From NCBI GenBank assembly GCA_965208105.1, contig OZ242318.1, positions 1,824,001 through 1,888,000 on the forward strand: 64,000 nt of DNA, given 5' to 3'. Source of the DNA: Candidatus Latescibacterota bacterium (GTDB lineage Bacteria > Latescibacterota > UBA2968 > UBA8231). Shown here in pieces: positions 1,304 through 23,464 of this stretch (position 1 is the first letter of the stretch; each line of letters begins with the position of its first letter). The translations under genes and the position numbers were made by a program. The notes below the pieces were generated by a model that had not been told where the DNA came from, searched no databases, and worked only from the letters and a program-made list of their open reading frames with translations.

Positions 1304-4300
1304 TTACCCCGCTCTCACAACCCCCTGGTCGGTTTTCAATGCCGGCAGCAAGGGCTGCCGCAGGGACCAATAAGCTGCCGAGACGCTGGCGGCCAAACCC
1401 GCCCCGAGCACCAGAGACAATGACAGGACGAGGGAGAGCCAGGGGACCTGAGAGCCGGATGAAAGCACGCGTGGGGCGACCGCCACGAGTGCGGCCAGGG
1501 CGCCCATCGACATTCCTGTTCCCAGGAGAAATCCATTCTCTGCCAGCAGCATCAGCGCCAGCCGCGAATTGCTAAAACCACAAGCGCGCAGGGTGGCGAG
1601 CTCTCCGCGGCGTTCGATCGCGTTCCTCAGCAAAAGGACCCCCAACCCCAGGGTTCCCCAGAGCAATCCCAATCCTCCCAGGACCTGGAATGTAGAGAGA
1701 TATGTATTCTCCACGGCTCGATATTCGGCCAGTCTTTCGGCGGTCGGGGTGACGTCAAATCCGAACGCGCCCAGGGAGCCTTCCAGAATCGAGGACAGGT
1801 GGGCGGGCCGCTCCCCGGCAGTCTGAAGCAGGAAGTAGCCGAATCCGGAGCGATTGGGAAAGTAGTGGTTGAAATGGGCCTCCGAAATCAGCAACTCGCC
1901 CTGAAAAATACTGTCCTTCAGGAGCCCAACGAGACGCAGCCGCAGATCTCGACCCATCTCATCCTGAACCAGCAGTTCCTCGCCCAGACCCCGATGCAGA
2001 ATCCACTGGACCGAGTTGTAATCGCCTATAGCCGCAATCACCCCCGGCTCCAGCTCCTCTTCCAGCAGGCTCCATGGATTCTCCACCTCTTCCAGAGTCT
2101 GCTGGAAGAGAAAGCCGCCTCGGTGAATCAGCTCGGCGGGGACCCCCAGCAGCTTAGGCCTCCGGGGCTGGTAGAGGTTGAGGCAGCTGATATCCTCCCC
2201 TGGCAGACTCCGCAGGGAAAAGATCCGGGTTCCCGTCTGGAAGACGGCACCTTCTCCGGTGAACCCAAGCTCTTCACGCCCCCGGGGCGAGTTCAGGTCG
2301 TGGTGAAGAGGGATGTCCGCTTCGGCCAGGAGTGCGAATCCTCCATGACCCGATTCCTTGAGCCCGGAGGCAGCATCTTCGGTTGCAGTCCTGCGGTTGG
2401 CCTCCACCGCCACGATGATGAAACAGGCGCAACCGACCAGGGCGGCGCAGGCCATACTGCGCCCGTGATGGCGACTGCTGTTGCGGATTCCCATGCGGAC
2501 CAGCCTCGCAAAGTCGGACCCGGCTCCTGACCGTCCCCGTCCTCTGTCCCGGCCCAACCACAGGGAAAGGAGAGCCAGCCCTGCCACCAGCAGGAGGGCT
2601 CCGCCGGCGAAGAACAGCCCGGCGGCAACCGCCGAATCGACGAAGGAGGTCAGGGCGACCGATGCCCCGCCGGACCCCAGACTGGCGATGGCAACCACCC
2701 GCGTCCGGCTCCGGGACCCGGCCTTCCTCCGCGTGACCGTGCCGTTGAGCAGCGCGCGAACCGGCTGCCTTCCGCACTGCCTCACCGTCCACCCGATGAA
2801 GACCAGGACCACCGCGACCGAGACCATGTACCCGGAAGCAAGGCTCAGCGGCTGCACGTGCAGATCAAGGAAGGGAGCGCCTGCCGCCGCCGTCCACGAG
2901 GTGCGCAGACCCGCCGTCAGCAGCCAGGCGTAGAGGACGGCGCCTCCGACACCGACAGCACTGCCGAGTGCGGCCAGGACCCCGCCTTCGGCCATGAAGC
3001 GCCAGCGCACGAACGCCAGGGGATATCCCATTGCGAGCAGCACCCCGATTTCCTTCGCCCGCTGCTCCACCCCGAGCCTGAAAATCAATCCCACCATCAG
3101 GGCCGAAGAGAATATGAGGAAGGAGCTGAACCCCATGAAGAGCATGCCGAAGTCGGTGGCTCCGGCGGCTGCTTCCAGGCCCAGGGATTTGACCGGCTGG
3201 AACGACATGCCCTCGACCCCGGGACCTGTCCTGCGCAGCAGTTCCCGCTGAAAATGCAGCCGCGCCTGCGGCTCATCGGCATGGGCTGGGGGTCCGATCC
3301 ACATGCCGGTCAAATCGCCGAAGCGGCTGCGCCATAGACTTCTGCCGGCGCCGGCCGCTATGAAAGCTTTGGGTGCCGCGCCGAACTCATCCCAGTAGGC
3401 CTCGTCCTTGCCGCGGATGGCGCTCAGATCGATGGCAAACGGGGGATCCCAATCGGACATGTCGTCGACGTTCTGAATGCCGGGAAAGGCAGGTGTCAAC
3501 AGGGGGTCGGCGGCCATTCCCCGCAGGGCAACCACTCCGCTCAGGCGGAATCGATCCGTGGCGGTGCGGAGCATCCCCCTCGGTCCGACGACGTGGTAGG
3601 TCACCTCGATCAAGTCCCCCGCCTCGGCGCCCAGATCTCGGGCCGCCCATTCGTTGAGCAGGATCTCGTCGTCAGCCAGGAGAGGCGCAGGCGACCCGTC
3701 GGTCAACTCGAAAGCCCCGAAGGGGCTCCTTTCCCGTTGAACGGCATCCAATGCCGCAATGGCCGAATAGGGGACGCTGCGGTCTTCGAAATCTATCCTG
3801 GTAGCAAGATTGGTCAGAATGGGTTGGAACGGAGCTCCCATTTCCAGCGCCAGCTCCCGGGCCGTTGCAGTGACGTGCCCGGGGAGGATGAAGCTTTCGG
3901 CCTCCAGGGCGAAGAAACCGGATCCCGCACGCAACCTCAGGCCCAGGTCTTCCAGACGCAGCACCCGGTGCAGTGCATCCTGCAGAGTGCGCGTGGTCCC
4001 GGGTGATCCCGGGGATTCTCTGGCGACGGCAAACAGGGCATTCACCTGTCCTTCCCGCTCCAGCGCCTTCTGCAGATCGGCCAGTGCGACGAATGCATTC
4101 AACGGCAGGTTCTGATGAGGATGCAGAGCCAGGCGGCCGAGCCCGCGGTCAGGGACGACTCCCGACAGAGTGAGCCGGAGAGTCTGGGTGACCGCGGCGG
4201 AATTGCGCCTGCCGAAAACGTACTCTCGATGGATCTCGCTGCGCCTTTCAATGGACAGAAGAATGGGATCGCCTATCTCCACCTGCAGCTCTTTCTGCAG

Positions 4301-4738
4301 GGACTGATTGATGACCACCGGCGCGAAATGGCGATCCGGCATTCCGCCCAATCGCTCCAGCACCATGGCCGCCGGCCCCTCGCGCTCTTCCAGGCTTGCA
4401 AAGTCCCGGTCGACCCCGATCACCTGGACGCGCGACGCCCGGTTGCGGGTGTGAGCGCCCAGTGCGCTTCCACTCAATAGAATGGCAGGAACGGCACCTT
4501 CGAAGGAGGCCGCAAAGGAGGGCTCGGCGGCAAGGTCCGCGCTCAGCCCTTCGCGGAAGAAGGGCTGAGCCACCAGGGCGTGGTCGATTCTACCGAGCCT
4601 CTCCAGGGTCAAGTCCCGCAAGCTGCCCCGGACGGAATCTCCCACCAGAAGTGCGCCTGTGAGGACGGCTGTGGCAGCCGCGGAGGACAGCAGCACCGCC
4701 GTATGCAGGCCGCGGAAATGAATCAGACTTCGACGCAA
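1304..4738 (-). CDS. Large MacB/FtsX-type ABC transporter permease (two FtsX halves, large periplasmic domains)
   Basis: 1144 aa; EQRAKEIGVLLAMG and ERRGELATLRACG FtsX signatures; follows an ABC ATPase gene. Confidence 0.85.
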   Translation of the reverse strand: MRRSLIHFRGLHTAVLLSSAAATAVLTGALLVGDSVRGSLRDLTLERLGRIDHALVAQPFFREGLSADLAAEPSFAASFEGAVPAILLSGSALGAHTRNRASRVQVIGVDRDFASLEEREGPAAMVLERLGGMPDRHFAPVVINQSLQKELQVEIGDPILLSIERRSEIHREYVFGRRNSAAVTQTLRLTLSGVVPDRGLGRLALHPHQNLPLNAFVALADLQKALEREGQVNALFAVARESPGSPGTTRTLQDALHRVLRLEDLGLRLRAGSGFFALEAESFILPGHVTATARELALEMGAPFQPILTNLATRIDFEDRSVPYSAIAALDAVQRERSPFGAFELTDGSPAPLLADDEILLNEWAARDLGAEAGDLIEVTYHVVGPRGMLRTATDRFRLSGVVALRGMAADPLLTPAFPGIQNVDDMSDWDPPFAIDLSAIRGKDEAYWDEFGAAPKAFIAAGAGRSLWRSRFGDLTGMWIGPPAHADEPQARLHFQRELLRRTGPGVEGMSFQPVKSLGLEAAAGATDFGMLFMGFSSFLIFSSALMVGLIFRLGVEQRAKEIGVLLAMGYPLAFVRWRFMAEGGVLAALGSAVGVGGAVLYAWLLTAGLRTSWTAAAGAPFLDLHVQPLSLASGYMVSVAVVLVFIGWTVRQCGRQPVRALLNGTVTRRKAGSRSRTRVVAIASLGSGGASVALTSFVDSAVAAGLFFAGGALLLVAGLALLSLWLGRDRGRGRSGAGSDFARLVRMGIRNSSRHHGRSMACAALVGCACFIIVAVEANRRTATEDAASGLKESGHGGFALLAEADIPLHHDLNSPRGREELGFTGEGAVFQTGTRIFSLRSLPGEDISCLNLYQPRRPKLLGVPAELIHRGGFLFQQTLEEVENPWSLLEEELEPGVIAAIGDYNSVQWILHRGLGEELLVQDEMGRDLRLRLVGLLKDSIFQGELLISEAHFNHYFPNRSGFGYFLLQTAGERPAHLSSILEGSLGAFGFDVTPTAERLAEYRAVENTYLSTFQVLGGLGLLWGTLGLGVLLLRNAIERRGELATLRACGFSNSRLALMLLAENGFLLGTGMSMGALAALVAVAPRVLSSGSQVPWLSLVLSLSLVLGAGLAASVSAAYWSLRQPLLPALKTDQGVVRAG

Positions 4739-5394
4739 TTACCGCCCTTCAATTCGATGCGGCGGTCAAAGGAGGCCGCCAGGTCGAGATTGTGGGTCAC
4801 GGCTATCAGAATGGTTTGCTCAGACCGGTGCAGCTCCAACAGCAGACCGGCCACCGCAGCCGCGGTGTTGTGGTCGAGATTGCCGGTGGGTTCGTCGCAC
4901 AGCAGCAGACGGGGATTGTTGACCAGGGCGCGGGCTACGGCGACGCGCTGGGATTCGCCTCCGGACAGCTCACCGGGAAAGTGGTGGAGGCGGTGCGAGA
5001 GGCCCACCGCATGGAGCAGCTCAAGCGCCCTTTCCTCCACATCTTCGCCCTTGCGCCTGAAGGCCATGGTTGGAACCAGCACGTTTTCGAGGACGGAATA
5101 TTGGGGCAGGAGGTGGTGATCCTGGAAGACGAAGCCGATGATCTGGTTGCGGAATGCCGCCACTTCGCGTTCGCGGAGAGCGAAGGGGTCCCTGCCGGCT
5201 ATGGTGATCCTTCCCGAGGAAGGGGGATCCAGGGTGCCAATCAGGTGCAGCAGGGTGCTTTTTCCCGAACCCGAAGGCCCGGTGACGGCAAGGGACTGCC
5301 CCTGGGTCAGCTCAAAGGAAACGCCATCGAGGACCTGGACACCTGCAAAGCTTTTGCCGACCTGGGAGACCCTGAGGGTGAAATGGTCATCCAT
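4723..5394 (-). CDS. ABC transporter ATP-binding protein (LolD/MacB-like)
   Basis: GPSGSGKS, LSGGESQR, LLLCDEPTGNLD, VTH. Confidence 0.93.
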   Translation of the reverse strand: MDDHFTLRVSQVGKSFAGVQVLDGVSFELTQGQSLAVTGPSGSGKSTLLHLIGTLDPPSSGRITIAGRDPFALREREVAAFRNQIIGFVFQDHHLLPQYSVLENVLVPTMAFRRKGEDVEERALELLHAVGLSHRLHHFPGELSGGESQRVAVARALVNNPRLLLCDEPTGNLDHNTAAAVAGLLLELHRSEQTILIAVTHNLDLAASFDRRIELKGGNCVEV

Positions 5395-5815
5395 GGGAAG
5401 ATGGAGCCTCTTCAATCTTTTGGGCGATAAATCCAGGAATGGGAACAGCCCTCATTCTTCCCCCTGGACTGCACATGCAGCAGGCCACCTTCAGCTGCCC
5501 GCGAGCAACCTCCACCTCCCCCCGCGCAAAGGAGAAAGCATAGGTAAGGGACCTGGCGCCCACCTTCAGGACCTTCAGAGAGACATCGAGCACATCCTCG
5601 AATCTGGCCGGATGCAGGTATTCGCACGAGGTCGTCAGCCGGGGCCAGCTGAGGTGGCCTTCATCCCGTTCCATAACAACGCTCAGCCCCAGGGCGCGGA
5701 GGAATTCATGCTCGACAGATTCCATCAGGACGAAGAAGCGGGAGAAGTGGACAATGCCGGCCATGTCCGTGTCGGCGAACTCCATTCTCCGCTGGGTCCG
5801 GTATTCGTATGCCAC
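5387..5815 (-). CDS. Acyl-CoA thioesterase (4HBT/YbgC hotdog family)
   Basis: FADTDMAGIVHF motif, 142 aa, GTG start. Confidence 0.88.
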   Translation of the reverse strand: MAYEYRTQRRMEFADTDMAGIVHFSRFFVLMESVEHEFLRALGLSVVMERDEGHLSWPRLTTSCEYLHPARFEDVLDVSLKVLKVGARSLTYAFSFARGEVEVARGQLKVACCMCSPGGRMRAVPIPGFIAQKIEEAPSSHG

Positions 5816-5822
5816 GGCGGTC

Positions 5823-5988
5823 TAGTTTCCCGTCGCAGAGATAGGTTGACGAAATTGGGCCGCCGAGGCGCCAGGCTCACAAGGCGCCTGAGCGAGTTGT
5901 ACCAGTGGTGTACGGCGAGTGATGGCAACGCCGTGAGCCGGGATGGATCGGCGGGATAATGGCGACATATTTCTGCGACGGGAAACTA
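5823..5988. mobile_element. ERIC-like MITE, copy 1
   Basis: TA + GTTTCCCGTCGCAGA ... TCTGCGACGGGAAAC + TA (15 bp perfect terminal inverted repeat flanked by TA); near-identical to 61852-62018. Confidence 0.85.
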
Positions 5989-6456
5989 ATTTCCAGGTCT
6001 GTATAGAGTCACCAGGAAGCCGCCCAGAGCGGCCAGAAGAATTCCCAGCACAAACGGCCAGCGCAGTGCACCCAGCCCGGCGGCGGGAGGATGCACCGCC
6101 AGGGCCAGGAATGCGTTGACCACGGGTGCGCCGGCGAAGACGATGGACATGACCACGCTGGGCGTTCCCCGGGCCCCGAAGGCGAGCAGAACTCCCAGGG
6201 CACCCAGGGCGCCCGCAATGCCAGCCGCTGTTGACCACCCCGCTCCCTTGGCCGAGAAACTCCAGGAGGCCCCCCCAATCCACAGCAGGACTGCCGACCC
6301 TGCCACCGCGGTCAGCATATACGCGACTCCCACGAAGAAGTAGGCCTTGTAACGTCCGAAAACCGGATCTCCCATGGCCAGTTGCCCCGTGTGCAGTAGA
6401 ACCCCGTAGCACCCCCACGCGCCAACCGCAATCAGAGCATAAATCATCCAGGTCAT
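5986..6456 (-). CDS. Small integral membrane protein (EamA/DMT-like, ~5 TM)
   Basis: 156 aa, five Gly-rich hydrophobic segments, W-G-x-Y-G near the N-terminus. Confidence 0.7.
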   Translation of the reverse strand: MTWMIYALIAVGAWGCYGVLLHTGQLAMGDPVFGRYKAYFFVGVAYMLTAVAGSAVLLWIGGASWSFSAKGAGWSTAAGIAGALGALGVLLAFGARGTPSVVMSIVFAGAPVVNAFLALAVHPPAAGLGALRWPFVLGILLAALGGFLVTLYRPGN

Positions 6457-6589
6457 CGCCGGACTCCCTTCGCTGTTTCTATTCCCCGCGACGCGGCCAT
6501 GCGCAGCGAAATTCCCTTGCAGACCGGCCAGTCGGGGGATCAGGGTGAACTTGCACTGCCGATTTCAACCTTCCTCCACGGAGGGATAC

Positions 6590-6754
6590 TAGTGCCTGCT
6601 TGCGTAAGTAAGCGTACGAACGAGGGCGCAGAAGCGCCCGGCTCGCAAGGCGCCTGAGCGAGTCGTACCTGGAGTGTACGGCGAGGGAGGGCAACGCCGC
6701 GAGCCGGGATGCAGCGGCGGCCGAATTCACGCGGAATTGCGCAAGCAGGCACTA
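6590..6754. mobile_element. ERIC-like MITE, copy 2 (variant terminal arms)
   Basis: TA + GTGCCTGCTTGCG ... CGCAAGCAGGCAC + TA; shares the core GGCTCRCAAGGCGCCTGAGCGAGTYGTACC...GTGTACGGCGAG..GGCAACGCCGYGAGCCGGGATG with copies 1 and 3. Confidence 0.8.
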
Positions 6755-8041
6755 GCCCAGGAACTCCTCGTACAGCGCCAAAGTCGCCGCCGCCATCACC
6801 TCGTCCCCGAACCTTCGATGCACCGCATCCTTTCCCCGTCTTGCCAACCGCTCTCGCAGTTCGGCATCATTCATCAACTCCTCTATGGCCGCGGCGACTG
6901 CCTCAGCGGAGCCCGGCCGCACCAGCAGTCCGCCTCCCGTCGCTTCGATCAACTCGGGGAAGGCCCCGTGGCGCGGCTGCACCACCGGCACTCCGTTGGC
7001 CAGGGCTTCCAGGACGAAGAGCCCCTTGGGCTCCTTGTAAACCGTCGGCACGGACAAAATGTGAAGGCCGTTGAGAAATTCGATCTTGCCCCGGCGGTCG
7101 ACCGCGCCCCAAAATTCAACCTCCCCTCTCAAGCCCCATGCATCAATCCTGCCCATCAGCCTTTCAAAGTACGGGCGGTCCCTCTCGCCGAGATAGCCGG
7201 CGATTTTGAGCTTGAGGGCCCCGGGACCCAGGCGCTTGCTCAGCAGGTTAAATGCCTCAACCAGCAGGTGAAGCCCCTTCTCCGGACAGATGCGGGCAAG
7301 GTAGCCCACGCAAAAAGCGCCTCCACCCAGGTCCTTCCTGCCTTCGCCGTGGCCCTGCAGGTTCAATCCCAGCTCGACCACCCTCATCCTCTCGGGGGCA
7401 ATGCCCAGAAAATCGGCCATGAAATCGGCATAGTACCTGCAGGGAGCCACGAACCCATCCACGTCTTGGCAGCGCCGGCGCAGAATCTCCAAAGCCCGAG
7501 ACCTGTAGGGCTCGACCATCTGCTGCAGGAAGAGATCCTCCCCCTGCAAGGCGCAGAGGACCGGGATCCCCAGCCTTCTCTTGATCTCCCGGGAAAATCC
7601 GGCAAACATGGAATTGGTGAGCTGGACCACGTCGGGTCCGTAGTCGTCCCCGAGCCATCGGACCAGCTTGGCCAACTCCTTGCGCTGTCTTCCCTCCTCT
7701 CCCCTCAGCACGGAGACCGTGAGCGCTCCCAGGTCCTCCGCCCGGGTGGATGGACTGAAACGGGAAAGCCCGTTCAGCAGGGAGGGACGATCGAAGAGGC
7801 GGTCCAGCACCCACGGCGTGTGGCGGAAAAGGGACGCCTTCTGCTGCAGGTAGACGTTGATGCCCCCGTAGAAAATGCGGTCCAGGCTGACGTTGGCGTC
7901 ATCGGTGCGCAGGGGCGTGTAGGTCGGAATGAGAGCGACCTCGGCGCCCAGCCTCTGCAAGGCCGCGGCCAGAGCGTTGTCGCGGATACAGCTTCCGCAG
8001 TACATTCCGGCGGCGCCGGCGGTGATATACGCGACTCTCAT
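6752..8041 (-). CDS. Glycosyltransferase family 4 (GT-B) with N-terminal CxxC
   Basis: YLARICPEKG, EPKGLFVLEALANGVPVV; N-terminal GMYCGSC. Confidence 0.88.
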   Translation of the reverse strand: MRVAYITAGAAGMYCGSCIRDNALAAALQRLGAEVALIPTYTPLRTDDANVSLDRIFYGGINVYLQQKASLFRHTPWVLDRLFDRPSLLNGLSRFSPSTRAEDLGALTVSVLRGEEGRQRKELAKLVRWLGDDYGPDVVQLTNSMFAGFSREIKRRLGIPVLCALQGEDLFLQQMVEPYRSRALEILRRRCQDVDGFVAPCRYYADFMADFLGIAPERMRVVELGLNLQGHGEGRKDLGGGAFCVGYLARICPEKGLHLLVEAFNLLSKRLGPGALKLKIAGYLGERDRPYFERLMGRIDAWGLRGEVEFWGAVDRRGKIEFLNGLHILSVPTVYKEPKGLFVLEALANGVPVVQPRHGAFPELIEATGGGLLVRPGSAEAVAAAIEELMNDAELRERLARRGKDAVHRRFGDEVMAAATLALYEEFLG

Positions 8042-9507
8042 TCTTCGGCGGCGGAGAAGAACCTTTTCACCACCTGGGAAGGGGGAGGCCTCGACAGCAG
8101 AGACCCGACGATCATGGCAGCGGCCGATGCGGCAAGAATGACAGCCGCCGGCATCACCCCCGCGTCACCCAGGGTATAGCCCGGAGTTCGCCACCCCTGA
8201 AAGAAGAAATAGCACCACAGGATCACCACGCTGACCACCGAGGCCAGAGCGCCGTACTTGGTACTGCGCTTCCAGAAGAGCGCGGCCACCACCACGGGAA
8301 AGAGCGCGGCGAATCCGCTGAAGGACCAGATGGCCAGTTTGAAGATGCTCCGCGCCGATACCAGGGAAAGCAAAAAGGTCAAGGCGAGAATGGCGACCAC
8401 GAAGAGTCTGCCCCAGAGAATCTGCTTCCTTTCGCTCATCCGGTCGTGAAACCCGTAGTGACGCACGATATCCTGGGTGAACATGGTCCCGATGGACAGC
8501 ACCTGCGAATCCAGCGACGACATGATGGCCGCGAAGACCCCCGCGGCGAGGAGGCCTGCCAGGACTTCCGGCGCATGCAGCTCGATCATCCTCACCAGGA
8601 CCGAATTTGCCTGCGCCCCCTTGAGATCGGGAAAATCGACGCTGCCCAGAACGCCGAGCAGCACGCTGGGGATCCAGACGACGGCGATACACAGCGGGTA
8701 GAACATCAGGGGGTAGCGGAAGGTCTGTGCGCTCCTGGCGGTGAGGCAGTGCATGAACATGTGGGGGAACATTCCCACCGAAAGCGGAATGCATGTATAG
8801 GTCAGCAGCTTGAGGGGCTTTATATGCTCGCCGCGAACGAGAAGCTCGGGATGATGTTCGGCGACCGATGACATGGCCTGAGTGAATCCCCCCATGCTGG
8901 AAACAATGGTGAAAAAAGCCACCCCGCCAAGTACCATGAACACCAGGGTCTGAAATGTATTGGCCCACGCCGTTCCGCGCAGACCACCGTAGCAGACGTA
9001 GGTCACGACCACGGCGCAGACCAGGAGTCCGCCCACCCACTCGGGGACCTGCCCGCCGCTGATCTGGTGCAAGGTGATTCCACCTCCCATTACCCCTATC
9101 AGGAGGTAGGGAATCACCAGGGCGATGAGGACGGCGAACAGCAGCAGGCCCAGGGCATCCGAATCCCAGCGCGCCCTGAAGTACTGCACCTGGGTGAGGA
9201 AGCCGTGCTCCTTGCCGAGCGCCCACACCCGCGTACCCACGAAGAAGAAGACGCAGGGAATGATCAGAGCGGAGGCGGAAGCCATCAGCCCGAAGACCCC
9301 GATTCCCTCATGGTAGGCCTCCCCCGAAGCGCCCAAGATAGCGAAGGCGGTCATGTTGGTGCCGAAAAGGGACATCAACAGCAGGAAGGGTCCGATACTG
9401 CGGCTGGCGACGAAGTAGTCTTCCCCGGTGCCGCGGAAGAACCGGTGGCTCAGGTTTCCCACCAGGAGCACGATGGCCAGATAGGCGAAGATTATCGCGA
9501 CAGTCAC
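8038..9507 (-). CDS. Sodium:solute symporter family permease
   Basis: EDYFVASRSIG, GGLRGTAW, AAIMSSLDSQ; ~13 TM; GTG start overlaps the upstream stop. Confidence 0.92.
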   Translation of the reverse strand: MTVAIIFAYLAIVLLVGNLSHRFFRGTGEDYFVASRSIGPFLLLMSLFGTNMTAFAILGASGEAYHEGIGVFGLMASASALIIPCVFFFVGTRVWALGKEHGFLTQVQYFRARWDSDALGLLLFAVLIALVIPYLLIGVMGGGITLHQISGGQVPEWVGGLLVCAVVVTYVCYGGLRGTAWANTFQTLVFMVLGGVAFFTIVSSMGGFTQAMSSVAEHHPELLVRGEHIKPLKLLTYTCIPLSVGMFPHMFMHCLTARSAQTFRYPLMFYPLCIAVVWIPSVLLGVLGSVDFPDLKGAQANSVLVRMIELHAPEVLAGLLAAGVFAAIMSSLDSQVLSIGTMFTQDIVRHYGFHDRMSERKQILWGRLFVVAILALTFLLSLVSARSIFKLAIWSFSGFAALFPVVVAALFWKRSTKYGALASVVSVVILWCYFFFQGWRTPGYTLGDAGVMPAAVILAASAAAMIVGSLLSRPPPSQVVKRFFSAAEE

Positions 9508-12305: not shown

Positions 12306-12363
12306 TCGACCCACATGGCCCTGCCGGATCCATGGGCATCCACCACGCCGGGCGAGGGAACCA

Positions 12364-16185: not shown

Positions 16186-17301
16186 TCAGAACGACGATTC
16201 GAAGAGTTGCAGCCAATCTTCCTCATCCAACGGACGCGGATTGAACTTCCCGGTCCACTGAGAGGCGGCCTCACCGGCCAGGCCCGGCAGGTCGGAGCTG
16301 CCGACCCCGCAATCCCCAAGGCGCCGAGGCAGCGCAGCCGCAAGCTGCAATTCAACGATGCGCTCGACCAATTTCTCCGCGCTGCCTTGCAGGTCCCGGT
16401 ACAATTCCTCCACAACGGCGCTGTTGAAGCGGACCACGGCAGGAAGCATGATCCCGACGGCTTCCCCGTGGGGGATTCCGTACGCGGCCGTCAACGGATT
16501 GGCGCAGGCGTGGGCCGCGCCCAGCATGGAGCTCTCGATGGCGGCGCCGGCCAAGTGCGCCCCCAGCAACATCCGGCCCCATGGCTCCACCTCCCCAGAT
16601 GGGTCCAGGACCGACTCGAAACTTGGTTCCAGCAGGCGCCAGGCCTCCCTGGAGAACATGGCGGAGACCGGGTTCCTCCGGGTGGTCACGAAGCTCTCCA
16701 GGGCGTGAGCGATGGCGTCGATCCCGGCGGCCGCGACCACCCGCGGCGGCGCGCTTTGGACCAGCAGAGGATCGAGAATGACGGCGCCGAACCGCGCCTT
16801 CTCGTCGCCGCAGGCCATTTTCCGATGGGTATCCGCCTGGGCGATCAGCGCGAAGGACTGAGCCTCGCTGCCGCTGCCCGCGGTAGTCGGGATCCCCATG
16901 GACGGCAGCATGGGAAGGTCCGCCCTGCCCGCGCCCCAGTAGTCCTCCATGCGGCCGCCCTGGGTGAGGAGGAAGTTTATTCCCTTGGCGCAGTCCATGG
17001 CACTGCCTCCGCCGAGACCTGCAATGAAGTCGATGCCATCCTGCTGCCTTGCAAAATGGACGCCCGCTTCCACCTCGCGCGTCGTCGGGTTTTCCACCAC
17101 CCCGTCGAACACGAAGTGCTCGATGGATTCGCGCTGCATGGACCGGATGGCCCTGAGGGCAATGCCAGCCCGGGCGACGCCGGGGTCGGTGACGAGCATG
17201 ACCCGGCGCCCCCCCAGCTTCCTGATCAGGCTCCCCAACCCATCCAGGGTATTCGCACCGAAAACCAGGTGCGCGCCAGGATGAAGGACAAATGGACCCA
17301 A
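16186..17301 (-). CDS. Iron-containing (family III) alcohol dehydrogenase
   Basis: GGGSAMD, PTTAGSGSE, DAIAHALE, HACAN, IPHG. Confidence 0.92.
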   Translation of the reverse strand: MGPFVLHPGAHLVFGANTLDGLGSLIRKLGGRRVMLVTDPGVARAGIALRAIRSMQRESIEHFVFDGVVENPTTREVEAGVHFARQQDGIDFIAGLGGGSAMDCAKGINFLLTQGGRMEDYWGAGRADLPMLPSMGIPTTAGSGSEAQSFALIAQADTHRKMACGDEKARFGAVILDPLLVQSAPPRVVAAAGIDAIAHALESFVTTRRNPVSAMFSREAWRLLEPSFESVLDPSGEVEPWGRMLLGAHLAGAAIESSMLGAAHACANPLTAAYGIPHGEAVGIMLPAVVRFNSAVVEELYRDLQGSAEKLVERIVELQLAAALPRRLGDCGVGSSDLPGLAGEAASQWTGKFNPRPLDEEDWLQLFESSF

Positions 17302-17308
17302 GGGGGAA

Positions 17309-18733
17309 TCAGCTCCCTAGAGCCTGGAGAGCTCTCTGGCGGTAGAGAAATTCGAAGAGGTTGCCCTCGTGGGGCTGGTCCCATGAAACCCGGTTGGTGC
17401 CGATGGGACCCAGGTTCAGGCGCTCGATCTGGGCGCAACTCAGCAGCTCCACGATCAACTCCCGGTTCCCGGTGATCGCCGTGGCGACCAGGGTCGGACC
17501 GATGCGCTTGAGGATCTGCTCCTGGGGGACCTGTACCACGCTGACGAAGGGGAAGAGAAATTCCGCGTTGGCCAGCGGGTGCTCGCCATCCTCGCACCAG
17601 AGGACGGTGGGCAGCAGAAAGGTGCAGCCCTCCCTTTCGACTATCCGGTCCCCACTCCTGAACCGGGCGGTAAGGTCCTCCGCGCCCCCCATCTCGAGCC
17701 GGGCGTCGATCAGCTCCGTCAGTCTCTGCGCCACCTCCGGCCGAGCGAAGGCCGCGACCCGCGCCTGCGGATGGTCCAAAGGCAGAGCTTCAATCCGCGC
17801 CAGGCGCTGCGCCAGGGCGGTGGCGATCTCCAGCCCGTGGCGCGGCACCCAGATGCCGGAAGCGTTGATGCACGACCTGCCCCCGTTCTCGGCCACCGAG
17901 GCCACCATGAGATCCAGATGGTCTTCCCAGCTCTCGGCCTCGTCCGTACCGAAAATGATCTTGCTGCGCCCCGGCCCATGGATCTGCACCCGGGGATCCC
18001 CGGCCCAGGACTCCACCGTGGCGTCGCCTCCGAACAGCATGGAACGGCCGCAGCGCAGGAGAATTTCCGAGGCTCCGGCATAATCGGTGGGGTAGTATCC
18101 GAATGCCTCGGGAGGACAGCCCGCGGCCATGAAAGCCCGGGCAAGACGCAACGGCGTCCAGGGTTCCTCCCTGCCGGGTTTGAGCATCACCGGGACCTTC
18201 AGCGCTAACGAGGGGGCCCAGAGAGAGTGCACCCCGGGAGAATTGCTGGGGAGCACCACCCCCAGGGCGCGGGTCTGGCAGATGTAGCTCAGGGGGCGCC
18301 CGTGATCGAGGTCCCATCCTCCGTCGAGGACCCCGAGGTGGAGCCCGCGCGTCAGACCGTCCAGCACCGCATCCATCTGCGAGAGAACCTGGTGAATCTT
18401 CTCCATGTTGCCGCGGCAGAGGGTCTCGGGGAGACCCGTGGTGGCCGAGGTCTGGCGCACGTAATCCTCCGGCCCCTGGGCATCCTCGTCCACGGGAAGG
18501 TCCGCCTCCATGAACAGGCGGGCGGCTTCCCCGCAGATTCCCAGCAGCTGCGCCGCCGAGAGGTCGGCGAGGGCGCGCTGGTTCTCCGCCGCGGAGGCCA
18601 GGTCCCTCGCCACCAGTCCCCTGTTGGCCTGGCTGACCAGGGCGACGGGCTCACCCGAGCCCAGGTGGCACAACCTGGCCGTATCCAGGCTCCTGTAGGG
18701 GGTCCCCGCGCGCAGTATGGGGATGTGCAACAT
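17309..18733 (-). CDS. Aldehyde dehydrogenase-fold acyl reductase (GriD/EhpG/LuxC-like)
   Basis: VLPSNSPG, LKPG, LFGG, IHGPG in place of LELGG, NGGRSC catalytic Cys, EFLFPF. Confidence 0.8.
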   Translation of the reverse strand: MLHIPILRAGTPYRSLDTARLCHLGSGEPVALVSQANRGLVARDLASAAENQRALADLSAAQLLGICGEAARLFMEADLPVDEDAQGPEDYVRQTSATTGLPETLCRGNMEKIHQVLSQMDAVLDGLTRGLHLGVLDGGWDLDHGRPLSYICQTRALGVVLPSNSPGVHSLWAPSLALKVPVMLKPGREEPWTPLRLARAFMAAGCPPEAFGYYPTDYAGASEILLRCGRSMLFGGDATVESWAGDPRVQIHGPGRSKIIFGTDEAESWEDHLDLMVASVAENGGRSCINASGIWVPRHGLEIATALAQRLARIEALPLDHPQARVAAFARPEVAQRLTELIDARLEMGGAEDLTARFRSGDRIVEREGCTFLLPTVLWCEDGEHPLANAEFLFPFVSVVQVPQEQILKRIGPTLVATAITGNRELIVELLSCAQIERLNLGPIGTNRVSWDQPHEGNLFEFLYRQRALQALGS

Positions 18734-18734
18734 T

Positions 18735-19823
18735 CTAATATACCCCCACCACCACCGACTCCTGCAGCTCCGACAGCAGGCGCAGATTCCTCACCCCGTC
18801 CCAGGGATAGGGAGCGATGGGCGCCACCCGCTCCGCCTCGTCGCGCTCGAGAAAGCGGGGCATGAAGAATTCCTTCGTCAGGGTGGTCAGCATGACCCGG
18901 CCCCTCTCGCCGTAGCCCACCGCATGGTGCGGAGGAGCGGTGGAGACCAGCTCGATGACCGCCCGCGGCTGGGGGGGATAGTAGGTGATGGCGTATCCGT
19001 CAGCCGGGTCGAAGGGCCTGGAGCAGGCCAGCCCCATCAGGGTGTTGCCATACGCGGGCACGAAGTCCACACCCGGGGCGAGCTCCTCGCGGGCGAAGCG
19101 ATGGAACTGGGCGTCCATCTCGGTGCCGCCGCAGAAAATCCCGGTGATCCCTGCCCTGGACAAGGAAATCTTCCCGCCCAGGGACTCCAGAAGCCTCGGT
19201 GTGGTGAACAGGCAGCGCACATTCTCGTGGGAGCGGAGGACCTGCAGGGCCTGGTCGACGACGTGGGTTTTGTACTCCTCCAGCTCGCGGTGCTTGCCGT
19301 GCTTTATCAGCTTGTTCACCCAGCGCGGGTCCAGGTCCACCATGAAGCAGATCCCTCCCCTGAGCTGGGCGAGATACTCGACGGCCAGGCGCAGGCGCCG
19401 CGGCCCGCTCGGTCCCAGCATCAGCCAGTCTGCCCCGCGCGGAAAGGCCTCCTCGGAGAGAGTCGCGCTGAACAACTCGTAATCGATGCGGAAATCGCGG
19501 ACGTTGAGGCGGTACTTGGGTACGCCGGTGGACCCCCCGGTTTCGAAAACGGAGACAGGCTCGCCGGCCAACCCCCGGGGCAGCCAGCGCCGCACCGGCC
19601 CCCCGCGCAGCCACTCGTCCTGGAAATGGCCCAGGAGCTTCAGGTCGCGGTAGCCGCCGATCTCGCGGACAGGGTCGAAGTCCAGTCCCGCGGCGAACTC
19701 TAGCCAGAAGGGACAGCCGGTCCGCTCTCCGAAGTGCCAGCCGACCATCTCGCGAACGTGGGCGTCCAGGCTTCGCCTCGCCGCCTCGATCTCCTCCGCC
19801 GAAGGGCCCTTCGCCCCGTTCAT
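18735..19823 (-). CDS. EhpF/GriC-like aryl-carboxylate adenylating enzyme
   Basis: WHF..TGCPFW, FETGGSTGVPK, DLDPRWV, GGTE, YGERG, ERD, C-terminal GVY; 362 aa; motif order matches EhpF as I recall it. Confidence 0.8.
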   Translation of the reverse strand: MNGAKGPSAEEIEAARRSLDAHVREMVGWHFGERTGCPFWLEFAAGLDFDPVREIGGYRDLKLLGHFQDEWLRGGPVRRWLPRGLAGEPVSVFETGGSTGVPKYRLNVRDFRIDYELFSATLSEEAFPRGADWLMLGPSGPRRLRLAVEYLAQLRGGICFMVDLDPRWVNKLIKHGKHRELEEYKTHVVDQALQVLRSHENVRCLFTTPRLLESLGGKISLSRAGITGIFCGGTEMDAQFHRFAREELAPGVDFVPAYGNTLMGLACSRPFDPADGYAITYYPPQPRAVIELVSTAPPHHAVGYGERGRVMLTTLTKEFFMPRFLERDEAERVAPIAPYPWDGVRNLRLLSELQESVVVGVY

Positions 19824-19835
19824 GGCCCGATCCCC

Positions 19836-21263
19836 CTATTCCCCCTCGATAGCAAATAGCATGTTGCGGCTGGCGATGTAGAGCACCCCGTCGCGGGCCG
19901 TCGGCGTGGTGTATACCGCACTGCCCATATTGACCTCGTAGAGCAGCTCCAGCTTCCTGCCCGCCCTCAGCACGGCCACGTCGCCGTCCTCGTCGCCGAT
20001 GTAGACCTTGCCGTCGGCCACGAGGGTCGATCCCCAGACCGCCGCGAAGGTATCGTAGGTCCAGTATTTCTCCCCGCTGCGGGCGTCGAGGCAATAGACG
20101 AATCCGCTGAGGTCCGCGGTGTAGAGCAGCCCGTCGCTGATGGCCGCGGTGGACAGGGTGCGGTTGTAGTCCCGGTCCCCCAGATGCCAGACCACCCCGC
20201 TGGCACTGACGTCCCCTCTCCCCTTCGCGTCGATGGCCCACAGGTGGCCTACCCCTTCCCCGTGCTCCGGATCCTGCCCCACCCCGACGTAGACCTTGTC
20301 ATCATAGAACACGGGGGTCGAGATAATGGCGTTCCGCGTTCCCCTTCCCCCCAGTTCCCACACGGAATCCTTGGGATTGCAATCGAACTTCCAGATGAGC
20401 TCCCCGGTTTCCGGCTCCATGGCGTAGATCCAGCCGTCGCCTCCCGGAAAGATCACCTGGCCCTTGCCCTCGACCACACCGTAGGCAGGATTGGACCACT
20501 GCCCGTGAAGGATGCGGTCCGCCGGGGAGTTGTCTTCCCACACCACCCTGCCGCTCTCCTTGTCCACCGCGACAAAGCTGGGGGCAAACGGAGTGGGAAT
20601 GTGGACATGCCCCTCGTCCACCCCGTTTCCGGTGACGACGAAGATCAGATTGCCGACGCCCAGAGGCGAACAGGTGGCCAGGTTGTGGGGAAAGACATCC
20701 AGCTCCGCGATCATGTCCAGCTTCCATATCACGTCGCCGTCGATGGCGCTTGTGTCCTTTTCCGAGACGAAGGGACCATCGTTTTCGCCGTCCAGGAAGC
20801 CTTCCGTATCGACGCACACCAGCTCGCAGCGGTTGGAGACATAGTAAAGGCGGTCGCCTTCGATGAAGGGGGTGGAGCAGACGCCCTGCCTGGGCCAGTC
20901 GTTGACTCTCCCCGCGGGGAGCTTGGTGTGGGTGGACTGCCACAGAAAGCGGCCGTCCGCCGCCCCGAAGGCCATGATCACTCCGCGGTCGCCCTTCAGC
21001 CCCGGGTTGCGCATACCCTGGTTGTTGGTGCCGACGAAGACCTTGTCCCCGATGATCACGGGACCGGCGTAGGTTTGCGACCCCAGGGGCGCCGTCCACT
21101 TGATATTCAACCCGGTGGCCGGGTCCCATCTCTCGGGCAAACCTCTCGCCTCCAGCGCCAGGTTGCGCGCCGGTGTGAACCCCCACATCGCGGTTTCCTC
21201 GGCGGCGGCGCCCATGGCCGCGGCGCAGACCGCGCCGATCGCCGCCCTCGCAAATCGTCCCAT
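19836..21263 (-). CDS. Secreted PQQ-like beta-propeller protein
   Basis: Signal peptide, NIKWTAPLGSQTY, repeated D..TG..IW blades, acidic loop DTEGFLDGENDG. Confidence 0.82.
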   Translation of the reverse strand: MGRFARAAIGAVCAAAMGAAAEETAMWGFTPARNLALEARGLPERWDPATGLNIKWTAPLGSQTYAGPVIIGDKVFVGTNNQGMRNPGLKGDRGVIMAFGAADGRFLWQSTHTKLPAGRVNDWPRQGVCSTPFIEGDRLYYVSNRCELVCVDTEGFLDGENDGPFVSEKDTSAIDGDVIWKLDMIAELDVFPHNLATCSPLGVGNLIFVVTGNGVDEGHVHIPTPFAPSFVAVDKESGRVVWEDNSPADRILHGQWSNPAYGVVEGKGQVIFPGGDGWIYAMEPETGELIWKFDCNPKDSVWELGGRGTRNAIISTPVFYDDKVYVGVGQDPEHGEGVGHLWAIDAKGRGDVSASGVVWHLGDRDYNRTLSTAAISDGLLYTADLSGFVYCLDARSGEKYWTYDTFAAVWGSTLVADGKVYIGDEDGDVAVLRAGRKLELLYEVNMGSAVYTTPTARDGVLYIASRNMLFAIEGE

Positions 21264-21265
21264 GG

Positions 21266-23464
21266 TCAATCTCCCGCCCATACCTTGACGTTGTCGTAGT
21301 GGATTTCAGCGGGTGAGTATCCGTACAACCCCGGACTCCCCTCCCGGTTCGGCAGGGGGTCCCGGGCGGTGATCGTCCACTCCCCGGGCTCCTCTTCGTT
21401 CCGCCGCCAGACCTTGCCCCTGACGATGGCCACTTCATCCCCCACCTCCACCTCCATCTTCATGGTGTACCAGACGCCGGGCTCCCAGTCGAAGGGGGAG
21501 GTAACGGCCATCCTCAGGTCCGAAGCCCAGGACCGGATCTGCAACTGCTGGTGGTTCCCCATCATATCCAGGGTGTAGCGGTTGGCGATCAATCCCATGT
21601 CAGGGCGCCTGCGCTTGTCCCAGGTTCCCATCAAATCGGCCTGAACGGTATACCCTCTCATGCCGGGAGGACCGAGGTAGACATTTGAACGGTGCAGCCC
21701 CACCCTGGCCGGCGGCTTGACCAGCACCTTGTTGCCGTGCAGGTCGCGCACCTTGAACTTGGTTCCCGCGCCGACCCAATGCGCCGGATTCCCACCTTCC
21801 TCCACCTCCTCGAAATCCTCGCTCCAGGGCAGCCCGGGGACGACCCGCACCCGCGCCCTGCCGCCTGCTCCCTCGGCCGCGGCCCGGACTATCCCCGCCT
21901 GGGCGCCAGCGCTACCGTTCAGAATCAGCCTCCCACCCGCGCCCATACTTCCCTCCAGACCCTCGAGGGTCCACTCGACCGCCGGCGCCTCCACGGAACG
22001 CCCTTCGTGGTCGAAGGCGAGCACTTCGAAGCGGACCGTATCCCGAGGCTGCGCCACCACCTCCGCCGGAACCACGAGCAGGGAGGCGGCCGGCCTCTCT
22101 TCGCCTGCGGCCTCCACTGGGAATTCCGGCACCACGGCCGGCCCGGCCACCGGCCCGGCCTCCCTATCCCCCAGGCAGTACAGCCCCTCTTCGGTGGCAA
22201 AGTAGATGCGGCCATTGGCCAGAGCCGGAGAACCGAAGATTTCGGCGGGGCGTCCTTCCCTGGTCCTTATCTCATCCCTGTCCAGTTTCAGGGGATGGCC
22301 TCCCCGGACTTCGAGAATGTGGAAGGATCCGTTGACCTCGGTGGCGTACAGCTTGCCGTCGGCCCAGACGGGGGATCCCCTGCCTACGGTTCCCAGGCCA
22401 TACTGCCAGAGGTCCCTCCCCGTATCCGGGTCGAGGCAGTGCAGGTTGGCGCCGTTGTCCACCAGGTAGAGGCCGCCGCCGCCCATGGCCGGAGAGGAGT
22501 AGCCCACCGCGAACTCGTCATAGCGCCAGATTTCATGGGTGGCGGTGACGTCTCCCCTGCCGCCGCCGTCGATGCATACCACCCTGCCCATGGCGGTGTT
22601 GTCCACGTTTTCCTCGCTGTGGGCGGCATAGACGCGGCTGCCCTCCACCAGCACCGATGAATTGATGCCGCGCCTGCTCAGCCGGAAACCCCACACCTTC
22701 TCCCCCGTTCGCGCCGCCATGGCGTAGATGGCGCCGTCGGCGTTGCCGCCGATCAGCAGCCGCCGCCCCCCGATGGCGGCCGCCACCGGAGTGGAGTAGG
22801 TGGTGTCCAGCGGGCGTCCCCCCGGCGCCGCAACCCACACCACCGCGCCGCTGCGCTTGTCGAAGGCAAAGTACCGATGCCTGGGCACGGCCTGGTCTCC
22901 CCAGCCGAGATTGAGAAAACTGATTATTACCTGGTCTTCGTGTACCACGGGAGTATGGACCCGCCCGCCGTAGCCGGAGATGCGGCCGAACTCCTCGGTG
23001 AGGGAACGGGACCACAGGACCTCCCCCTCGGGGTCGAGGCACAAAAGGAGGCCGCCGACCCCGTGGACGTAGATGTTCCCGGTCTCCGGATCACCGGCGG
23101 GGCTGGCCCACCCCACCCTGTTGAACGGAATGGTCGTGTGAAAGACGTTGAAGCGGTGTTCCCAGAGCAGCTTCCCGCTCGCCGCGTCGAAACAGGCCAC
23201 CAGCTCCTGCTCGGTGATGCCCTCTCCCCCGCGGCCGGTGACGCATACCCTGCCGTCGAGGACGACCGGGGTTGAGCGGCCGCAGAAATCCGCCTTCCAT
23301 ATCAGGTTTTCACCCTCGGCAGACCAGCGCGAAATAAGGCCCGTTTCCATGGACGCGCCATTCTGCCAGGGACCCCTCCAGCCGGGCCAGTCGGCAGCGC
23401 CGGCGGCCGGGGGACTCGCCGCCGCGGAGAGGAAGAATACCAGAGAAACTGCCTTGATTCGCAT
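21266..23464 (-). CDS. Secreted PQQ-like beta-propeller protein with Ig-like and C-terminal beta-sandwich domains
   Basis: Signal peptide, DWPGWRGP, propeller blades, then WSEDFE...WYTMKMEV...YDNVKV. Confidence 0.8.
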   Translation of the reverse strand: MRIKAVSLVFFLSAAASPPAAGAADWPGWRGPWQNGASMETGLISRWSAEGENLIWKADFCGRSTPVVLDGRVCVTGRGGEGITEQELVACFDAASGKLLWEHRFNVFHTTIPFNRVGWASPAGDPETGNIYVHGVGGLLLCLDPEGEVLWSRSLTEEFGRISGYGGRVHTPVVHEDQVIISFLNLGWGDQAVPRHRYFAFDKRSGAVVWVAAPGGRPLDTTYSTPVAAAIGGRRLLIGGNADGAIYAMAARTGEKVWGFRLSRRGINSSVLVEGSRVYAAHSEENVDNTAMGRVVCIDGGGRGDVTATHEIWRYDEFAVGYSSPAMGGGGLYLVDNGANLHCLDPDTGRDLWQYGLGTVGRGSPVWADGKLYATEVNGSFHILEVRGGHPLKLDRDEIRTREGRPAEIFGSPALANGRIYFATEEGLYCLGDREAGPVAGPAVVPEFPVEAAGEERPAASLLVVPAEVVAQPRDTVRFEVLAFDHEGRSVEAPAVEWTLEGLEGSMGAGGRLILNGSAGAQAGIVRAAAEGAGGRARVRVVPGLPWSEDFEEVEEGGNPAHWVGAGTKFKVRDLHGNKVLVKPPARVGLHRSNVYLGPPGMRGYTVQADLMGTWDKRRRPDMGLIANRYTLDMMGNHQQLQIRSWASDLRMAVTSPFDWEPGVWYTMKMEVEVGDEVAIVRGKVWRRNEEEPGEWTITARDPLPNREGSPGLYGYSPAEIHYDNVKVWAGD

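Follow-up and report, generated by a model that had tools for sequence, protein, structure and literature searches.

Background

The EhpF/EhpG pair of the D-alanylgriseoluteic acid cluster of Pantoea agglomerans and the GriC/GriD pair of Streptomyces griseus are two-protein aryl carboxylate reductases that act on aromatic acids. Here we describe a cluster of 17 genes which carries a homologous pair and lies in a 64,000-nucleotide stretch of contig OZ242318.1 of a Candidatus Latescibacterota bacterium (assembly GCA_965208105.1); this whole stretch is called the window. The two genes have the same order and sizes as their characterised relatives, a protein of about 362-366 amino acids (aa) without the ANL C-terminal subdomain being followed by an aldehyde dehydrogenase (ALDH)-like protein of about 473 aa. 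In Pantoea agglomerans pASB05p2, PhzA/B, PhzD-, PhzE-, PhzF- and PhzG-like genes are followed by those for a 366-aa AMP-binding protein and then a 473-aa ALDH-family protein. On the other hand, identity to the described pairs is only about 26-39%, the window cluster has neither phenazine nor aminohydroxybenzoate genes and, unlike EhpF/EhpG, its pair is co-inherited with exported beta-propellers, a GT4 glycosyltransferase and an ABC (ATP-binding cassette) system of type VII.

For the transport side, YbbAP is proposed as the closest working precedent, the shared logic being extraction from the membrane followed by transfer to a periplasmic partner. According to PMC12646458, YbbAP passes membrane-extracted molecules to such a partner. 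Like YbbAP, the window has a separate ATPase and a single permease with duplicated FtsX domains and about ten transmembrane (TM) segments, and a thioesterase gene adjoins the ATPase gene. Unlike in YbbAP, the first periplasmic domain of the permease, at about 500 aa, is double the usual size and contains barrel-like inserts; the thioesterase is predicted to be a cytoplasmic 4HBT-fold enzyme instead of an exported TesA-type one, and the candidate partners are the propellers.

Related clusters have been noticed in sponges. A section of a preprint (bioRxiv 10.64898/2026.08.03.742642) describes 'Halo_AMP' as a rule-based class of sponge-microbiome clusters with a halogenase and an AMP-binding domain, 9% of them Latescibacterota in origin and 8% Poribacteria, with Acidobacteriota also represented. 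They encode a PaaK/BagE-like ligase and frequently PQQ-like domains, radical S-adenosylmethionine (SAM) enzymes, thioesterases, glycosyltransferases, TonB and an ABC transporter resembling glycolipid exporters; there are 20 families, uncharacterised and without a MIBiG match, and a P450-containing family was studied. The core of reductase, propellers and ABC system reported below is not described in that section, and it also exists without a halogenase. A preliminary description made from the window DNA alone had called the cluster undescribed, a word to be toned down in view of the similar, uncharacterised Halo_AMP clusters in the preprint. It had also known of no product; in agreement with this, no characterised cluster matched, though no search of MIBiG was made, and a literature search found no paper assigning a product to such a cluster. 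New here are the division into core and accessory genes, the LolE/LolC-like domain of the permease and the lectin-like domain of one propeller.

Results and discussion

Conservation and distribution of the cluster

The 17 genes are one conserved system. The order prop766-prop481-EhpF-GriD-FeADH-prop467-HemN-(prop434)-PaaK-halogenase-(SSS)-GT4-EamA-TE-ABC-FtsX, in which prop denotes a propeller, FeADH an iron-type alcohol dehydrogenase (Fe-ADH), SSS a sodium:solute symporter and TE a thioesterase (Table 1), was kept in all eight relatives whose clusters were fetched whole. The genes for prop434 and the symporter were each not found in three of the eight; for genome G040, prop766 and prop481 were not in the fetched stretch and prop481 was located on another contig. 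Among 41 relatives, an EhpF-like ortholog was present in 28 and the FtsX permease in the identical 28. The HemN-like ortholog was also found in 28, its distribution departing from that of EhpF only in two genomes of 81% and 86% completeness, and the halogenase in 26, all of them EhpF carriers. Sampling of the phylum (121 genomes) showed the EhpF-like and the prop481 gene together in 59 genomes and neither of them in the remaining 62. The carriers fall in three families only (22/40, 25/29 and 11/13 genomes); the other eleven families, represented by 38 genomes, had neither gene.

Linkage is not needed for this co-inheritance. In G010, G025 and G029 more than 1 Mb separates the permease gene from that of EhpF, and in one family (f4) prop481 is on another contig or more than 0.4 Mb away, with both partners still kept in each case. 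Since related genomes are not independent, we take the counts as description and not as a test; the co-retention of unlinked parts, however, is hard to explain unless they share a function.

Databases hold more than 8000 relatives of the EhpF-like protein, of which the best 120 are 73-97% identical to it, and 593 of 601 candidate stretches from species-representative genomes encode such a relative. The best 80 loci carry the labels Poribacteria, Latescibacterota, Gemmatimonadota, Acidobacteriota, Calditrichia and Multivoradales; identity within the EhpF-like family is 65-77% between labelled phyla, and a prop766 ortholog was found in 60 of the 80. Near-identical DNA is present in sponge and marine metagenomes of several studies, and long contigs from a sponge-metagenome DNA run of another study cover all 30 bins of the cluster with about 1% of positions differing. 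In a tree of EhpF-like proteins the rows cluster according to phylum label (9 changes, compared with 32 after shuffling), and soil Acidobacteriota form a separate clade. As Latescibacterota and Gemmatimonadota labels interleave among near-identical rows, we draw no conclusion on horizontal transfer from this tree. The preliminary description had made its reading depend on co-occurrence in other genomes, and this is what the eight conserved orders and the shared presence patterns (28/41 and 59/121 genomes) provide. Of the phyla to which it had assigned similar neighbourhoods, Acidobacteriota was recovered, but none of the best 80 loci is labelled Planctomycetota or Verrucomicrobiota, more than 500 further matches lying beyond those 80.

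Taken singly, the enzyme families are ordinary; the combination of a reductase, a glycosyltransferase, a Lol/YbbAP-like type VII ABC system and four propellers is not, and its parts are inherited together in hundreds of bacteria, most of them uncultured, among which are symbionts of sponges and Acidobacteriota from soil.

Mobile or selfish genes were seen inside the clusters of several relatives with the gene order otherwise unbroken (L091 15500-16552; L099 6012-7208; L103 18568-19707; L010 11574-13914). They include an IS1595 transposase in G008, a DUF4143 AAA ATPase gene inserted between those for EhpF and GriD in G033 and G027, and antitoxin-like genes in a Poribacteria locus.

Core and accessory genes

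Eleven acidobacterial loci were analyzed within ±10 kb. EhpF, GriD and GT4 orthologs were found in all eleven, the ABC ATPase in ten and the FtsX permease in nine, and none of the eleven had a HemN, PaaK, halogenase, Fe-ADH or thioesterase gene in this range. Whole-genome searches of five of these Acidobacteriota located a prop481 ortholog in all five, HemN and halogenase orthologs, adjacent to each other, in two, and a PaaK ortholog in one. A second block, prop766-prop481-FeADH-prop467 plus the symporter gene, was present in both Acidobacteriota genomes examined for it, with DUF3311 detected only in G042; in G041 this block lies 10-25 kb from the first.

The core of the system comprises the EhpF/EhpG-type reductase pair, Fe-ADH, GT4, the EamA protein, the ABC/FtsX pair, the four propellers and DUF3311/SSS. 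The tailoring genes are accessory; they encode the PaaK-like ligase, the halogenase, the HemN-like enzyme and the thioesterase, and in relatives a TonB receptor joins this set. This split makes a Pyrinomonadaceae-type set, which lacks the halogenase, the simplest experimental system.

Reductase pair and glycosyltransferase

The 362-aa EhpF-like protein gave no Pfam match at E 0.001 and was matched over residues 20-362 by the EhpF structures 3l2k and 3hgu (E 8.6e-44). Its phosphate-binding motif TGGSTGxPK is kept in 95-96 of 96 orthologs, the variable x excepted, and its gene is single copy in the source genome (G000). A gap of 1 nt separates it from the gene of the GriD-like partner, in which Cys288 is invariant in 83/83 orthologs. 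By sequence, the two are an adenylating subunit and an adjacent ALDH partner with a catalytic Cys, that is, a pair of the EhpF/EhpG (GriC/GriD) type, and carboxylate reduction is predicted. EhpF and GriD homologs are also adjacent in ten comparable plasmid records, including those of Pantoea, Streptomyces, Burkholderia and haloarchaea. One Streptomyces plasmid match annotated 'arylcarboxylate reductase' had no ALDH gene adjacent in the stretch shown, only a type I polyketide synthase (PKS). Among the literature mentioning EhpF, none was found on the wider distribution of the family. A LuxC/LuxE reading of the pair was rejected, as no such Pfam match appeared even at E 5.

Several single-member database open reading frames (ORFs; P0391-P0402) fuse the EhpF-like protein to ALDH-like or Fe-ADH domains, PQQ_2 propellers or an SSF symporter; P0391, for instance, is a 1258-aa singleton fusion of EhpF, ALDH and ADH_Fe_C. 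They could be genuine fusions or could have arisen when genes that overlap were called as one, and are weak evidence.

The proposed pathway

From the gene content, conservation, co-inheritance and fold and motif assignments we infer a pathway, that is, an order of steps, a class of substrate, a direction of transport, a hand-over to the propellers and a purpose for the product. We give only slightly less than even chances to the view that the system makes a reduced and glycosylated derivative of a small carboxylic acid, in all likelihood an aromatic one and optionally tailored, and delivers it to the periplasmic propellers. The acid would be imported by the DUF3311/SSS symporter, with the help of a TonB-dependent receptor in relatives. 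In the lineage of the window, the PaaK-like ligase would form its coenzyme A (CoA) thioester, which the flavin-dependent halogenase would halogenate and the HemN-like radical-SAM enzyme modify, probably by C-methylation, before the 4HBT thioesterase releases the acid from CoA. Because the ligase and the thioesterase come and go with the tailoring enzymes, tailoring would take place on the thioester, to be hydrolysed before the acid reductase acts. The EhpF/EhpG-type pair would then convert the acid to the aldehyde with ATP and NAD(P)H, and Fe-ADH the aldehyde to the alcohol. At the inner membrane GT4 may attach a sugar; the glycosylated product may be flipped by the EamA half-transporter, and the LolCDE/YbbAP-like type VII ABC machine would extract it on the periplasmic side and pass it to the four exported propellers, one of them with a lectin-like domain.

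The preliminary description had put forward the same logic of activation, tailoring, reduction, glycosylation and export as a single set of genes. The families and the conserved catalytic motifs fit that logic, but its tailoring part, the halogenase, HemN-like, PaaK-like and thioesterase genes, proved to be accessory. The carrier phyla could thus possess an abundant metabolite, secreted or of the envelope, that has escaped notice; in sponge symbionts it may be halogenated. The proposed pathway also gives a testable function to the numerous, uncharacterised 'PQQ-like' propellers and suggests that type VII ABC transporters may have partners of a new kind.

Membrane and transport proteins

The TM map of the permease shows periplasmic domains of about 500 and about 240 aa. 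Its family has 2993 cluster representatives at E<=1e-30, the best 150 being nearly all full length. Residues 33-533 were modelled with a pLDDT of 93.5, and structural comparison of this model (VIA) gave matches to LolE 5udf (Z 16.3), LolC 5naa (14.4), MacB (14.2), HrtBA/HrtB (11.3) and YbbAP 9ge6 (10.9), with YknZ also among them; overall, 163-321 residues were aligned with a root-mean-square deviation of 3.4-20.1. In the model the first periplasmic domain thus has a LolE/LolC/MacB-like fold, its inserted parts giving weaker, barrel-like matches. The ATPase gene shares 16 nt with the permease gene, and LolD is the best NCBIfam match of its product (249.1 bits, cut-off 307.75). The FtsX permease with a large periplasmic domain and a separate ATPase make this a type VII ABC system (MacB/LolCDE/FtsEX/YbbAP). 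Likeness is greatest to LolCDE; unlike in LolCDE, however, the LolD cut-off is missed, the permease is one fused chain and the cluster showed neither a LolA nor a LolB gene.

The EamA-like protein has about five predicted TM segments, and its nearest ESM Atlas clusters are 'putative EamA domain-containing' (score 0.98). Pfam gave nothing for this protein or for either periplasmic domain of the permease even at E 5. The symporter has 12 predicted TM segments; its likely start is a GTG at 9507, which overlaps the DUF3311 stop.

The likeness to lipoprotein extractors bears on an alternative which we consider unlikely, namely that the operon makes an envelope glycolipid: a lipidic acid would be reduced to a fatty alcohol, glycosylated and carried to the outer membrane by the Lol-like machine, comparable to the heterocyst glycolipids and DevBCA. 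Besides the LolE/LolC and YbbAP likeness of the permease domain and the LolD likeness of the ATPase, this would agree with the score of the latter against the DevA family (158.5 bits), with the lipid-acting PimA among the Protein Data Bank (PDB) relatives of GT4 and with the acidobacterial minimal sets, which lack aromatic tailoring genes. The cluster, however, has no LuxC/LuxE, fatty acid synthase, PKS or carrier-protein family, and the characterised relatives of the reductase pair belong to aromatic pathways (the Pantoea phenazine cluster and GriC/GriD). The PaaK-like ligase and the phenol/pyrrole type of halogenase also point away from a lipid, and SSS symporters with a small partner carry small hydrophilic solutes and not lipids.

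Propellers

Reading of the sequences by eye showed a hydrophobic, signal-like N-terminus in each of the four propellers and a lipobox Cys in none. They are only 21-31% identical to each other, suggesting old, separate families. Their eight-bladed PQQ_2-type repeats resemble those of BamB and of the dehydrogenases dependent on pyrroloquinoline quinone (PQQ), but unlike these they miss the family cut-offs: they score 47-146 bits against BamB (TIGR03300, cut-off 285.2) and 26-79 bits against PQQ alcohol dehydrogenase (TIGR03075, cut-off 480). The likely start of prop467 is Met97 of the longest ORF (to 16415), a hydrophobic N-terminus following that residue, and prop434 starts at Met11 of its longest ORF, the identical database protein having 424 aa. 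The prop434 family counts 3357 homologs at E<=1e-40, and many polar residues are invariant among orthologs.

The C-terminal 297 aa of prop766 were predicted by AlphaFold2 (pLDDT 90.6) to form an Ig-like domain and a ConA-like jelly-roll. In Foldseek the jelly-roll matched lectin or carbohydrate-binding module (CBM) domains of sialidase 5mqr and galactocerebrosidase 3zr5, CBM66 4b1m (TMt 0.73) and GH16 proteins. This predicted lectin-like fold fits a glycoside ligand and would be the first link of the exported proteins to a sugar-bearing ligand.

A complex was predicted for permease residues 33-533 with prop434 residues 35-434, one of eight possible pairs of a propeller and a periplasmic domain. 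It scored 0.35 (runs 0.44, 0.01 and 0.35), the best of three controls scoring 0.02, with contacts between runs agreeing by at least 88% and a partner pLDDT of at least 86. Among 80 solved complexes 58 attain the mark applied, and among 110 mismatched pairs 2 do so; at scores of 0.60 or less it is attained by only 7 of the 80 and by both mismatches, so that a pass at a low score is wrong in most cases, except for a guess that had been likely from the outset. The prediction lends weak support to docking of prop434 on the permease domain.

A second alternative, raised in the preliminary description and in our judgement rather unlikely, is that the product is a prosthetic group other than PQQ which, once loaded into the four propellers, turns them into enzymes. 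It would account for the perfect agreement of prop481 and EhpF-like genes in presence and absence over the 121 genomes, for the many invariant polar residues of prop434 and for the fact that four of the approximately seven PQQ_2-like ORFs of the genome lie in this cluster. The 94%-complete genome moreover gave no pqqC match and no pqqE above its cut-off, a weak negative since the pqqC control matched no control genome. The propellers are, on the other hand, of BamB size and far below the score of a PQQ alcohol dehydrogenase, no cytochrome or other redox partner gene is present in the cluster, and the lectin-like domain suits binding of a surface sugar better than a buried cofactor.

A bolder reading, to which we give little weight, takes the propellers and the oversized, duplicated FtsX ABC system as an undescribed periplasmic machine whose ligand, prosthetic group or building block is an aryl glycoside made by the operon. 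If true, this machine, found across five labelled phyla or more, would be either a bacterial equivalent of the monolignol-glucoside route of plants, with activation, reduction, glycosylation, export and extracellular use, or a system of the 'non-PQQ quinoprotein' kind.

Tailoring enzymes

The best eight PDB matches of the flavoprotein were all halogenases (8zop, Mpy16 5buk, CndH 3e1t, ChlB4, PltA, Bmp2 and CmlS among them; E 2e-57 to 1.4e-44), and its GxGxxG motif (GGGPAG, 8-13), Lys69 and WxWxIP motif (from W214) are each kept in 12/12 orthologs. This Lys is the catalytic residue of flavin-dependent halogenases. The protein scores 93.6 bits against Pfam Trp_halogenase, above the cut-off of 21. 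Its 176.1 bits against the NCBIfam CmlS-type model (cut-off 900) mean only that it is not CmlS, as that model is a single-enzyme equivalog. Although Mpy16, PltA, Bmp2, CndH and CmlS are its top structural relatives and the motifs are invariant, the window halogenase, unlike these enzymes, has no carrier-protein, nonribosomal peptide synthetase (NRPS) or PKS partner, and its substrate would be a CoA thioester or the free acid. A reading as a protein-quinone maturase (QhpG/LodB; NCBIfam matches of 136.7 bits, cut-off 240, and 95.7 bits, cut-off 400) was rejected in favour of a halogenase because the top structures are all halogenases and WxWxIP is kept. The halogenase ortholog of G027 matched only over residues 3-298 and has a TGA inside; the gene may have become a pseudogene, the rest of the cluster being intact (L103 7512-8351; G027:C2:3455763-3456650).

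The PaaK-like ligase matched PaaK 2y4o (E 1.9e-53) and is nearest to true phenylacetate-CoA ligases, at scores below the NCBIfam PaaK cut-offs (240.9 vs 700 and 209 vs 646.3 bits). The thioesterase scored 51.3 bits against the YbgC/FadM family (cut-off 68.7). In the HemN-like protein CxxxCxxC is invariant in 33/33 orthologs, and HemN 1olt (E 3.6e-30) and, for the class C (HemN-like) radical SAM methyltransferases, NocN 9p2u (E 5e-30) match it equally well. Its scores lie below the NCBIfam cut-offs for HemN (163.4/324.95), HemW (157/205.4) and, the best of the three, ChuW/HutW (174.8/400). A second HemN-like gene elsewhere in the genome is more HemN-like and 31% identical to the first.

Between the prop434/HemN genes and the PaaK gene, five of the eight relatives and one Gemmatimonadota locus carry a gene for a TonB-dependent receptor. 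Together with the symporter in the operon and the nearness of the ligase to true phenylacetate-CoA ligases, this receptor would suit the catabolism or detoxification of exogenous (halo)aromatic acids, which would be imported by receptor and symporter, activated by the PaaK-like ligase and degraded or conjugated by the remaining enzymes. We regard this as improbable: no ring-attacking paa-type or dioxygenase gene was found with Pfam or NCBIfam, the flavoprotein has the signature of a halogenase and not of a hydroxylase or dehalogenase, and the genes are tightly co-inherited with exported propellers. The ABC type, too, is known only for export, extraction or mechanotransmission (in part after PMC12646458). 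Handling of heme or some other tetrapyrrole by the HemN-like enzyme and the TonB receptor, with reduction and glycosylation of its propionate, is very improbable in spite of ChuW/HutW being the best NCBIfam match, of the receptor in relatives and of the heme exporter HrtBA among the structural matches of the permease domain, since the ChuW/HutW cut-off is missed, HemN and NocN match equally, the HemN-like gene is accessory (2/5 core-bearing Acidobacteriota genomes) and Pfam showed no further heme-uptake gene in the cluster.

An ortholog of the TonB receptor, 80% identical, lies 0.9 Mb away in the source genome (L108, G000:C1:928000-947000). Its neighbours encode an ankyrin-repeat protein, an 828-aa fusion of a metallophosphatase with a PQQ_2 propeller and three proteins without a family; a Calditrichia cluster carries an ankyrin-propeller fusion.

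Points weighing against the proposed pathway

Several observations weigh against synthesis and delivery of a reduced, glycosylated acid derivative. None of the 17 proteins attains a curated NCBIfam cut-off, so that functions are assigned at the level of families only. That the acid is aromatic is a guess from the PaaK and halogenase likeness and from the aromatic substrates of EhpF and GriC, and three of the five core-bearing Acidobacteriota genomes lack the aromatic-type tailoring genes. The TonB receptor and the symporter could equally mean catabolic uptake or re-uptake of a secreted product. As to the hand-over, the complex prediction is weak, with one of its three runs at 0.01, and no one propeller constantly adjoins the permease gene. 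Finally, short contigs from two RNA-labelled runs of two studies fall on 27/30 and 23/30 bins of the cluster, but such contigs show neither transcripts nor strands and DNA carry-over is possible; the 3 and 7 bins devoid of them carry no information.

Organization of the locus and flanking genes

The 17 genes, all on the minus strand, tile positions 1304-23566 as longest ORFs, or 1304-23464 if the first gene starts at its signal-peptide Met (Table 1). Gaps between neighbours range from -29 to +58 nt except for two of 170 and 295 nt, and the G+C content of the window is 58-67%. Family assignments are those of Pfam unless another basis is named, and the curated NCBIfam cut-offs were also checked. 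The co-directional, mostly overlapping genes and the families named in the preliminary description were borne out by the ORF, Pfam and NCBIfam analysis; as it had also stated, the Pfam and NCBIfam scan of the 17 proteins found no NRPS, PKS, carrier-protein, phz or pqq core family.

Table 1. Genes of the cluster, with positions in the window and the basis of each assignment
Gene product	Position	Strand	Basis
FtsX permease, duplicated, 1144 aa	1304..4738	-	Pfam FtsX x2
ABC ATPase, LolD/YbbA/MacB type	4723..5415	-	Pfam ABC_tran E 1.2e-34
4HBT-fold acyl-CoA thioesterase (accessory)	5387..5815	-	Pfam 4HBT_2 E 8.1e-10
Single-EamA-domain (half drug/metabolite transporter, half-DMT) membrane protein, 156 aa	5986..6456	-	ESM Atlas
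GT4 glycosyltransferase	6752..8041	-	Pfam Glycos_transf_1 E 2.8e-28 + Glyco_trans_4_4
Sodium:solute symporter (SSS)	8038..9507	-	Pfam SSF E 5.4e-44
DUF3311 small membrane partner of symporter, 74 aa	9504..9728	-	Pfam DUF3311 33.7 bits, cut-off 30
Flavin-dependent halogenase, pyrrole/phenol type (accessory)	9751..10986	-	Pfam Trp_halogenase/FAD
PaaK-like aryl/acyl-CoA ligase (accessory)	10983..12314	-	Pfam AMP-binding_C_2; PDB PaaK 2y4o
Exported propeller prop434	12364..13638	-	Pfam PQQ_2 E 9.9e-41
HemN-like radical SAM enzyme (accessory)	13670..15019	-	Pfam Radical_SAM + HemN_C
Exported propeller prop467	15012..16127	-	Pfam Beta-prop_ACSF4 206 bits (cut-off 133) + PQQ_2
Iron-type alcohol dehydrogenase (Fe-ADH)	16186..17301	-	Pfam Fe-ADH E 3e-42 + ADH_Fe_C
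EhpG/GriD-like reductase, divergent ALDH-superfamily member	17309..18733	-	Pfam Aldedh E 5.3e-12 (weak)
EhpF/GriC-like adenylating enzyme, 362 aa, without ANL C-terminal subdomain	18735..19823	-	EhpF structures
Exported propeller prop481	19836..21281	-	Pfam PQQ_2 E 2.5e-24
Exported propeller prop766	21266..23464	-	Pfam PQQ_2 E 3.3e-45; longest ORF to 23566

The only two long gaps of the operon each contain one copy of an element of about 165 bp, which occurs at 5816-5985, 6457-6751 and 61860-62012 and in approximately 130 copies in the genome at 94-97% identity. It looks like a repeat of the miniature inverted-repeat transposable element (MITE) or repetitive extragenic palindrome (REP) kind. 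The depth of metagenome contigs rises about 40-fold at this element. An Rfam scan of the window found no riboswitch or other family at gathering score, and promoter and terminator scans of positions 1-20000 gave 4 hits against 2.4 and 16 against 14.9 in shuffled sequences, that is, not above the shuffles.

The flanking genes belong to families unrelated to those of the cluster. Downstream (2-1287), an isochorismatase-family gene on the same strand begins 17 nt past the permease stop and is followed by a QPRT-like gene; homologs of the two were not seen in the short flanks fetched from relatives. Upstream there are an SMP-30/gluconolactonase-like gene (24099-25058) and genes for an M16 peptidase, AnmK and a Wzy_C protein. 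The SMP-30/gluconolactonase-like gene also adjoins prop766 in G001 and G008 and was not seen in the other six relatives. Positions 29298-32108 encode a protein of 936 aa in which a Wzy_C domain (O-antigen ligase-like), situated towards the C-terminus, is all that could be recognised.

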